UHGV virus genome: UHGV-1844214
Direction: 5' to 3' (one strand)
Source of the DNA: a virus
Length of the DNA: 16,776 nucleotides
Below the pieces are notes generated by a model. That model did not search any database. It was given only the letters and a program-made list of their open reading frames with translations, and was not told the DNA's origin. Below are positions 8,510 through 9,280 of this stretch, piece by piece. A program made the position numbers and the translations under genes. Numbering within the stretch: the stretch's first letter is position 1; the number at the start of each line of letters is the position of its first letter.

Positions 8510-8620
8510 ATGCCCTCCATAGTAACCATGAAACAATAATACGATATGTACTTTTAGAATGCAAACAAAAAATACATCTTGTGCATGGATGGTTTTAGTA
8601 CAGAGCGTAATAATAAGGGT
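8510..8620. promoter_or_regulatory. OR region: divergent pR (for cro) and pRM (for cI) with candidate operator sites
   Basis: Minus-strand -35 TTGCAT (8564..8559) and -10 TATTAT (8541..8536) with 17-bp spacer upstream of cro; candidate operators AATAC-N5-GTACT (8538-8552) and AGTAC-N5-GTAAT (8597-8611), related to the AGTAC-N5-GTACT palindrome at pL. Confidence 0.5.
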
Positions 8621-9280
8621 ATGAAAATGAAATGGTATGAACTGGCTAGATCCAGAATGAAAGAGCTCGGCATAACTCAAGAGAAGTTAGCCGAAGAGCT
8701 TGGTATGACGCAGGGTGGAATTGGTCACTGGTTGCGCGGATCTCGTCATCCATCTCTTGACGAGATTGGTGTGGTGTTTAAATACCTTGGTATTGATAAC
8801 GTCTCATTCAACCACGACGGTACATTTTCACCTGTTGGCGAATACTCATCTGCCCCCGTTAAAAAACAATATGAGTACCCTGTTTTTTCTCATGTTCAGG
8901 CCGGGATGTTCTCGCCTGAGCTTAGAACCTTTACCAAAGGTGATGCGGAGAGATGGGTCAGCACAACCAAAAAAGCCAGTGATTGTGCGTTCTGGCTTGA
9001 AGTTGAAGGTAATTCCATGACCGCGCCAACAGGATCCAAGCCGAGCTTTCCTGACGGGATGTTAATTCTCGTTGACCCTGAGCAGGCTGTTGAGCCAGGT
9101 GATTTCTGCATAGCCAGACTTGGTGGTGACGAGTTTACCTTCAAGAAACTGATCAGGGATAGCGGTCAGGTGTTCCTACAGCCACTAAACCCGCAATATC
9201 CAATGATTCCATGCAATGATAGCTGTTCCGTAGTAGGGAAAGTTATCGCCAGCCAGTGGCCTGAAGAGACATTTAGTTAA
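8621..9280 (+). CDS. cI: CI-type prophage repressor (about 219 aa): non-lambda N-terminal HTH domain fused to a lambda-type LexA-like (S24) C-terminal domain
   Basis: C-terminal part (..[133 protein letters not shown].) matches lambda cI as recalled, including the Ala-Gly cleavage site and Ser/Lys dyad (GNSM, FKKL). N-terminal 85 aa differ. Start ATG 8621 chosen ([10 protein letters not shown]); 8627 is also possible. Confidence 0.85.

Follow-up and report, generated by a model that had tools for sequence, protein, structure and literature searches.

Many Stx1 and Stx2 prophages are controlled by the VT2-Sakai immunity type. In the summary of their work given in PMC10742460, Fattah et al. [quoted passage not shown] A 'Clade I' has been defined that unites lambda CI with the CI proteins of Eru2/Eru3 Stx phages, whose overall identity to lambda CI is 61% (PMC8951638), and the phages concerned include AP005153, AP005154, 2851 and 1717 (PMC8951638, supplement). 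Three operators on each side, OR1-3 and OL1-3, have been predicted for Sakai-type phages (PMC4587872).

The window, that is, the whole stretch of 16,776 nucleotides that was analysed, contains a lambdoid early region in the orientation opposite to that of the lambda map. This region is, with high confidence, a working lambdoid immunity module of the VT2-Sakai type, made up of cro, OR1-3, cI, a terminator and OL1-3 with pL. The genes and regions of the locus are the following:

6810-7709, minus strand: O-like replication gene
7881-8174, minus strand: cII, lambda-type, with 97.8% nucleotide identity to lambda over 7841-8287 (BLASTN)
reaching 8287: lambda-like nutR/tR1 spacer
8294-8509, minus strand: cro, 71 aa
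8510-8620: divergent control region, 111 bp
8621-9280, plus strand: cI, 219 aa
8621-8869, plus strand: N-terminal DNA-binding domain and linker of cI, aa 1-83, non-lambda, VT2-Sakai type
8870-9277, plus strand: cleavage-site region and C-terminal S24/oligomerisation domain of cI, aa 84-219, lambda type
9311-9332, plus strand: intrinsic terminator-like hairpin with T-run, directly 3' of cI; the stem has 8 bp, 5 of which are GC pairs
about 9343-9440: OL/pL region
9440-9527, plus strand: nutL region, lambda-type, 96.6% identical to lambda (BLASTN, lambda nutL annotation)
9490-9504: boxB hairpin GCCCTGAAGAAGGGC, from a hairpin scan
9615-9941, plus strand: N antiterminator gene, lambda-type, with 94.2% nucleotide identity to lambda over 9589-9916 (BLASTN)

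The reading frames of cI, cro, cII and N are all intact in the window. The hairpin at 9311-9332 lies between the cI stop at 9280 and the beginning of OL3 at 9359, and rexA and rexB are absent. Thus, the layout given in the preliminary description, in which cI is followed directly by a terminator and pL (9406-9434) without the rex genes, is upheld.

The start of cI had been placed at a TTG at 8579, both by the ORF lister (8579-9280) and in the preliminary description. This start is rejected because it lies inside the operators OR2/OR3, and because the homologous proteins begin at MKMKW or MKW. The true start is probably ATG 8621 or ATG 8627; the annotation of phage 683R2 uses the equivalent of 8627, and an AAGGG motif is present at 8615-8619, 7 nt before 8627. 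Residues of cI are numbered here from ATG 8621.

Two Pfam domains are recognised in the protein, HTH_3 at aa 11-58, which passes the curated cut-off (E=8.3e-11), and Peptidase_S24 at aa 87-209 (E=8.9e-29), and the whole corresponds to PHROG 4, transcriptional repressor. The helix-turn-helix is predicted at aa 20-40, with the recognition helix at aa 31-40. When the PDB was searched with the cI sequence, the lambda repressor 3bdn was retrieved (E=2e-96), the lambda structures covering the C-terminal part, and no solved structure of the N-terminal domain type was found in this search, which returned only two weak matches for it (E ~6e-4 to 9e-4). By alignment to Ala111-Gly112, Ser149 and Lys192 of lambda, the cleavage site is located at Ala94-Gly95 and the catalytic dyad at Ser132 and Lys175, residues whose roles are established in the biochemistry of lambda and LexA. 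Judged by these sequence characters (HTH_3 joined to Peptidase_S24, an Ala-Gly site and a Ser/Lys dyad), cI would belong with the self-cleaving S24 repressors of the LexA and lambda cI kind.

The comparison with lambda cI (NP_040628; PDB 3bdn, 1f39, 2ho0) divides the protein into two parts. In a three-way protein alignment of the window, lambda and the Stx1 phage, residues 84-219, a stretch that takes in the cleavage site, the dyad and the entire oligomerisation surface, are identical to lambda at 133 of 136 positions (98%), against approximately 18 of 83 positions (about 20%) in residues 1-83. The three residues of the C-terminal part that differ are, in window numbering, 122 (Ser to Cys), 200 (Glu to Asp) and 219 (Gly to Ser). 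At the DNA level, lambda homology in cI is detected by BLASTN only at 8870-9274, with 93.6% identity over 405 nt, and in a three-way nucleotide alignment the unbroken lambda identity begins at the TAT codon 8870-8872 (Tyr84) and stops at the stop codon. The junction, at 8869/8870, falls in the hinge; the first residue of the shared block corresponds in the alignment to Tyr101 of lambda (mature numbering), and the block contains the Ala-Gly site, the Ser/Lys dyad and the complete oligomerisation domain. It had been claimed that the C-terminal ~130 residues were nearly identical to lambda cI and the N-terminal HTH unrelated, with a junction around nt 8860-8880, and that a uniform divergence from lambda would refute this; the alignment is bipartite instead, and the switch point lies within the range proposed.

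Relative to lambda, the immunity-specific DNA is distributed in two patches, one at 8288-8869, with cro, OR and the N-terminal domain of cI, and the other at 9275-9439, with OL/pL and without rex. The conserved block encoding the C-terminal domain is flanked by both of them. Lambda also differs from the window in its Cro, which has a distinct fold, and it is the only one of the two to carry rexA/rexB. A search of the window for lambda operators (TATCACCGCCAGTGGTA-like) gave zero matches at up to 3 mismatches. Taking together the N-terminal domain (18/83), the absence of such sites and the HTH_3 type of its Cro, the locus would not be of lambda immunity (imm-lambda).

The module of the window has close relatives among known phages. 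The megablast of 8294-9280 against deposited phage genomes matched 101 records, and the N-terminal 82 residues of cI are found at 95% identity or more in 63 phage records. The isolated coliphages vB_EcoP-683R2, 720R6, Dewey and Louie show 99.4-99.9% DNA identity over cro-OR-cI; in Dewey, both halves of cI are 100% identical to the window protein, and in 683R2 cI is likewise followed by a terminator, pL and N, the rex genes being absent. The homology between 683R2 and the window is patchy outside 7839-9942, the rest of the genome being mosaic. At about 93% DNA identity appear Nil2, the Stx1-converting phage AP005153, Stx2 II, 2851, 1717, HUN/2013 and the PA series. In the VT2-Sakai/Stx1-phage group (AP000363, AP005153, Stx2 phage II, Nil2, 2851, 1717, YYZ-2008 and PA4-type), the cro-OR-cI segment is 93% identical DNA over 987 nt, and the module of VT2-Sakai itself (AP000363) shows 99.8% identity with that of the Stx1 phage and 93.1% with that of the window. 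When 8294-9460 was compared with 5426 complete E. coli genomes, a match was obtained in 1207, and in 768 of these at least 80% of the query is covered.

The cI of the Stx1 phage is identical to that of the window at 212 of 219 residues and has the same hinge junction to a lambda-type C-terminal domain; in the N-terminal domain the identity is 80/83, and the three changes (D46S, E47D and V61I) lie outside the predicted HTH at aa 20-40. The Cro proteins share 70 of 71 residues. The two loci differ in their surroundings: Stx phages have approximately 1.5 kb of small ORFs between cI and OL, whereas in the window the terminator and OL come directly after cI, and the cII and N of the window are lambda-type, those of the Stx phages being of HK022/HK97 type. 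By its N-terminal domain, its Cro and its set of six operators, the window can be assigned, on sequence grounds, to the VT2-Sakai immunity type.

Thus, the proposal that the window carries a new immunity specificity has to be abandoned, taking into account that the same module is the widespread VT2-Sakai/Stx1-converting-phage/Nil2/2851 type, whose CI falls in the Clade I of PMC8951638; the preliminary description itself had allowed that a match to a known, named type would make it simply not novel, and the database matches and the literature agree on such a match. The cI/Cro/operator module had already been described, belongs to a very common immunity type, and is represented in the window by an ordinary member.

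In the VT2-Sakai record AP000363 (~10900-11560, complement), an in-frame TAG is present in the helix-turn-helix of cI, where MT*GG replaces the MTQGG of other phages; this accounts for the annotation of cI in that record as a truncated gene of 510 nt. The TAG may represent either a genuine amber mutation or an error in the sequence.

With respect to the donor of the N-terminal domain and Cro, the question that had been raised receives a partial answer. The type is that of the VT2-Sakai group, but outside this group nothing closer than Salmonella phages, at ~55% (tblastn), was retrieved. The Salmonella P22-like phages SPN9CC, 146851_sal4 and g341c, together with the ST64T / L c2-cro region, have an N-terminal domain of the same family as the window (47-52%), and their Cro proteins align closely with the window Cro, that of ST64T being visibly the closest. 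Their C-terminal domains are diverse: SPN9CC joins an N-terminal domain 51% identical to that of the window to a lambda-like C-terminal domain (79%), and in ST64T an N-terminal domain with 47% identity is followed by a C-terminal domain of 434/P22 type, 44% identical to the window. Given this divergence, these repressors presumably have different specificities.

The Cro of the window, whose gene is preceded by a GGAGGG Shine-Dalgarno sequence, is an all-helical HTH_3 protein (Pfam, E=1.4e-12) and does not have the lambda Cro fold. It barely aligns with lambda Cro and aligns readily with those of SPN9CC and ST64T. It resembles the N-terminal domain of its own cI, with 22 of 62 residues identical (35%; BLASTP E=5e-13), and in the 19-residue stretches around the recognition helices the identity rises to 12/19, so that the striking similarity between the two, pointed out beforehand, is real. 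On the basis of this resemblance, the suggestion that Cro and cI read the same operators is retained as plausible: both proteins may share one operator set.

The control elements predicted in the two regulatory regions are listed below:

8537-8553: OR1, TAATACGATATGTACTT, second-best matrix score in the window; homologous to an operator annotated in AP005153
8570-8586: OR2, AAATACATCTTGTGCAT, sixth-best matrix score; homologous to an operator annotated in AP005153
8596-8612: OR3, TAGTACAGAGCGTAATA, adjoining the cI start; homologue of an AP005153 operator
9359-9375: OL3, AAATACAAAGCGTTATA, homologue of an AP005153 operator
9392-9408: OL2, TAGAACATTTTGTATTG, overlapping the pL -35; homologue of an AP005153 operator
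9417-9433: OL1, AAGTACAAATCGTACTA, best matrix score; between the -35 and -10 of pL
8565-8536, minus strand: pR-like promoter, TTTGCA-18-TATTAT, with the -10 overlapped by OR1
9406-9434: pL-like promoter, TTGACT-17-TACTAT, overlapped by OL1 and OL2

The operators are computational assignments, partly carried over from the annotation of AP005153, where six 17-bp sites are marked 'putative'. In both control regions, repeat searches bring out sites resembling AGTAC-N5-GTACT. The six 17-bp pseudo-palindromes have a half-site of approximately wArTAC, and OL1 matches the core AGTAC-N5-GTACT as a perfect palindrome with zero mismatches. When a symmetrised weight matrix was built from the six AP005153 operators, the top six of the 16,776 positions of the window were exactly OR1-3 and OL1-3, OR2 being a weak match whose score (10.9) is within the range of the shuffled controls. 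Each operator occupies a position homologous to that of its Stx1-phage counterpart and differs from it by 1-2 substitutions, most of which are found in the middle of the site or at its edge. Between the window and the Stx1 phage, the OL region has an overall identity of ~78%; within it, 47 of 51 operator positions are identical against 44 of 75 outside the operators, and therefore selection on the sites is indicated. A consensus promoter scan did not detect pRM.

OR2 is centred 43 nt before the cI ATG at 8621, compared with 42 nt in lambda. The spacing between operator centres is 33 and 26 bp in OR and 25 and 33 bp in OL, as opposed to 24/23 and 24/20 in lambda; therefore, a lambda-style pairwise cooperativity between OR1 and OR2 cannot be assumed. 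It can be observed that this spacing differs from that of lambda although the cooperativity domain is 98% identical to that of lambda.

By analogy with lambda, it is proposed that cI dimers would bind the six 17-bp sites by means of an HTH_3 N-terminal domain whose sequence is not related to that of lambda, with the result that pR and pL would be shut off, and that a paralogous, all-helical Cro would read the same six sites. The lambda-type module at aa 84-219 would provide dimerisation, pairwise and long-range cooperativity and RecA-stimulated self-cleavage as in lambda, and cleavage at Ala94-Gly95 would lead to prophage induction. The direct results on which this scheme is built are the relationships between the sequences, the domains present, the operator sites and the promoter matches, and binding, repression, cooperativity and cleavage enter it through homology. 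Purifying selection is indicated by the excess of synonymous changes in the C-terminal domain with respect to lambda (24 synonymous against 3 non-synonymous codon changes) and by the conservation of Cro.

The same changes inform about the age of the exchange. In the C-terminal block, 28 of 408 nt are not those of lambda and almost all of the differences are synonymous; therefore, the exchange is old, and since the shared domain is ~7% diverged from lambda DNA, lambda itself was not a recent donor. The three alleles of this block are under strong purifying selection and roughly equidistant, with 28 nt differences between the window and lambda, 35 between the window and the Stx1 phage, and 28 between the Stx1 phage and lambda. 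Between the window and the Stx1 phage, the C-terminal domain allele (8.6%) is more diverged than the N-terminal domain (4.4%) and cro (1.9%), which hints at further exchange inside the shared block. The two-patch pattern is best read as an old exchange at the interdomain hinge, of a kind that is common among lambdoid repressors.

This reading was extended by comparing 12 repressors domain by domain, including those of SPN9CC, ST64T, S137, 146851_sal4, P8983, mEpX1, Lyz12581Vzw, PSTCR3 and mEpX2. Between P8983 and Lyz12581 the identity is 97% for the C-terminal domain but 31% for the N-terminal one; S137 and mEpX1 share 85% in the N-terminal domain and 64% in the C-terminal domain; and in mEpX2 a lambda-like N-terminal domain is joined to a C-terminal domain like those of 434 and ST64T. 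Within these 12, swapping at the hinge appears to be general among lambdoid repressors.

The direction of the exchange could be the reverse of that first supposed, the C-terminal domain being native to the lineage of the VT2-Sakai/SPN9CC N-terminal domain and lambda cI being the derived chimera. The closest outgroup C-terminal domains (79-83%) belong to Salmonella phages, where they are attached to an N-terminal domain of the window type (SPN9CC and 146851_sal4, 51%) or of a third type (S137), and never, among the 12 repressors, to a lambda-type one; the lambda-type N-terminal domains of P8983, PSTCR3 and mEpX2 carry C-terminal domains that are 39-65% identical. This weakly suggests, in a small sample, that it may be lambda cI and not the window cI that is derived. 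However, the comparison covers 12 sequences by identity, S137 indicates that the Salmonella C-terminal clade has itself been shuffled, and N- and C-terminal domains may evolve at different rates, so that the reversed direction, although possible, is considered doubtful. The claim that a foreign domain was grafted onto lambda likewise presupposes a direction that is not fixed by the data, in view of the ~7% divergence of the C-terminal block and of outgroups that never bear a lambda-type N-terminal domain.

The version given in the preliminary description was that of a recombination of recent date, by which a lambda genome exchanged its own N-terminal domain, OR and cro for foreign ones and acquired a new immunity specificity. 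The sharp junction at 8870 and the lambda-like flanking cII, nutL and N would be in agreement with it, and the 'lambda backbone' that it invoked does exist in cII, nutR, nutL and N, which are 94-98% lambda-like. It does not extend to the O-like gene, which is of Stx1-phage/HK022 type, to the DnaB-like helicase, or to the genes beyond N, which are unrelated to lambda. As the module was already widespread and named, and the C-terminal domain has accumulated its differences from lambda in a set of roughly equidistant window, VT2-Sakai/Stx1 and lambda alleles, a recent origin is very improbable.

It could also be thought that the locus is a decayed, non-functional remnant in a cryptic prophage. 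Complete E. coli genomes contain no match to the full length of the window, the best coverage at a single place being 66%, and the cI of AP000363 contains the in-frame TAG mentioned above. Nevertheless, the frames of cI, cro, cII and N are open in the window, its changes are mostly synonymous and its operators conserved, and deposited phage genome records carry the module at >99% identity, all of which makes decay a most unlikely explanation. For almost every segment of the window, complete E. coli genomes provide matches of at least 95%; the prophage combines common modules into a mosaic of its own.

Finally, the idea that no recombination took place and that a single gene diverged unevenly, with an N-terminal domain changing rapidly because diversifying selection favoured new immunity, finds some analogy in pairs where the N-terminal domain is indeed the faster (51% against 79% between SPN9CC and the window), but it is scarcely credible, given that at 8870 the DNA passes within a few bases from unalignable to 93.6% identity, that the N-terminal domain of the window is 47-51% identical to those of SPN9CC and ST64T against 20% to that of lambda while the C-terminal domain of ST64T reaches only 44%, and that Cro follows the same division, aligning with SPN9CC and ST64T and hardly with lambda.

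An old exchange at the hinge, which we prefer over these explanations, leaves the window a residual value as a clean example of module exchange in a two-domain phage repressor. The lambda-type C-terminal block, situated between the immunity patches, is a stretch of homology where lambdoid immunity regions can be swapped. Because the oligomerisation/cleavage domain is 98% identical to that of lambda, mixed dimers, tetramers or octamers with repressors of lambda immunity might form in cells that harbour both prophages, an idea that we consider rather improbable, as we do the related one that lambda cI is an evolutionary chimera. [quoted passage not shown] Taking into account that many Stx prophages are under the control of this immunity type, any functional effect of the lambda-type domain, be it on the induction threshold or through hetero-oligomers, would bear on toxin release; this consideration is not peculiar to the window.

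Some further observations concern the rest of the window. An Rfam scan of its whole length gave zero families at the gathering score. The product of the ORF at 9953-10576 (plus strand), directly 3' of N, is a full-length protein of the Nmad5 family (nucleotide-modification-associated domain 5; Pfam PF18757, E=1.5e-70); it corresponds to PHROG 1965, of unknown function, and its ORF occupies the place that sieB and ral have in lambda. In the O-like gene at 6810-7709, a direct repeat at 7222-7251 and 7288-7317 encodes the same 10-residue peptide twice, and each copy matches the position of the other copy in the Stx1 phage at 30 of 30 nt. By analogy with lambda O, this repeat could represent candidate origin iterons located inside the gene.
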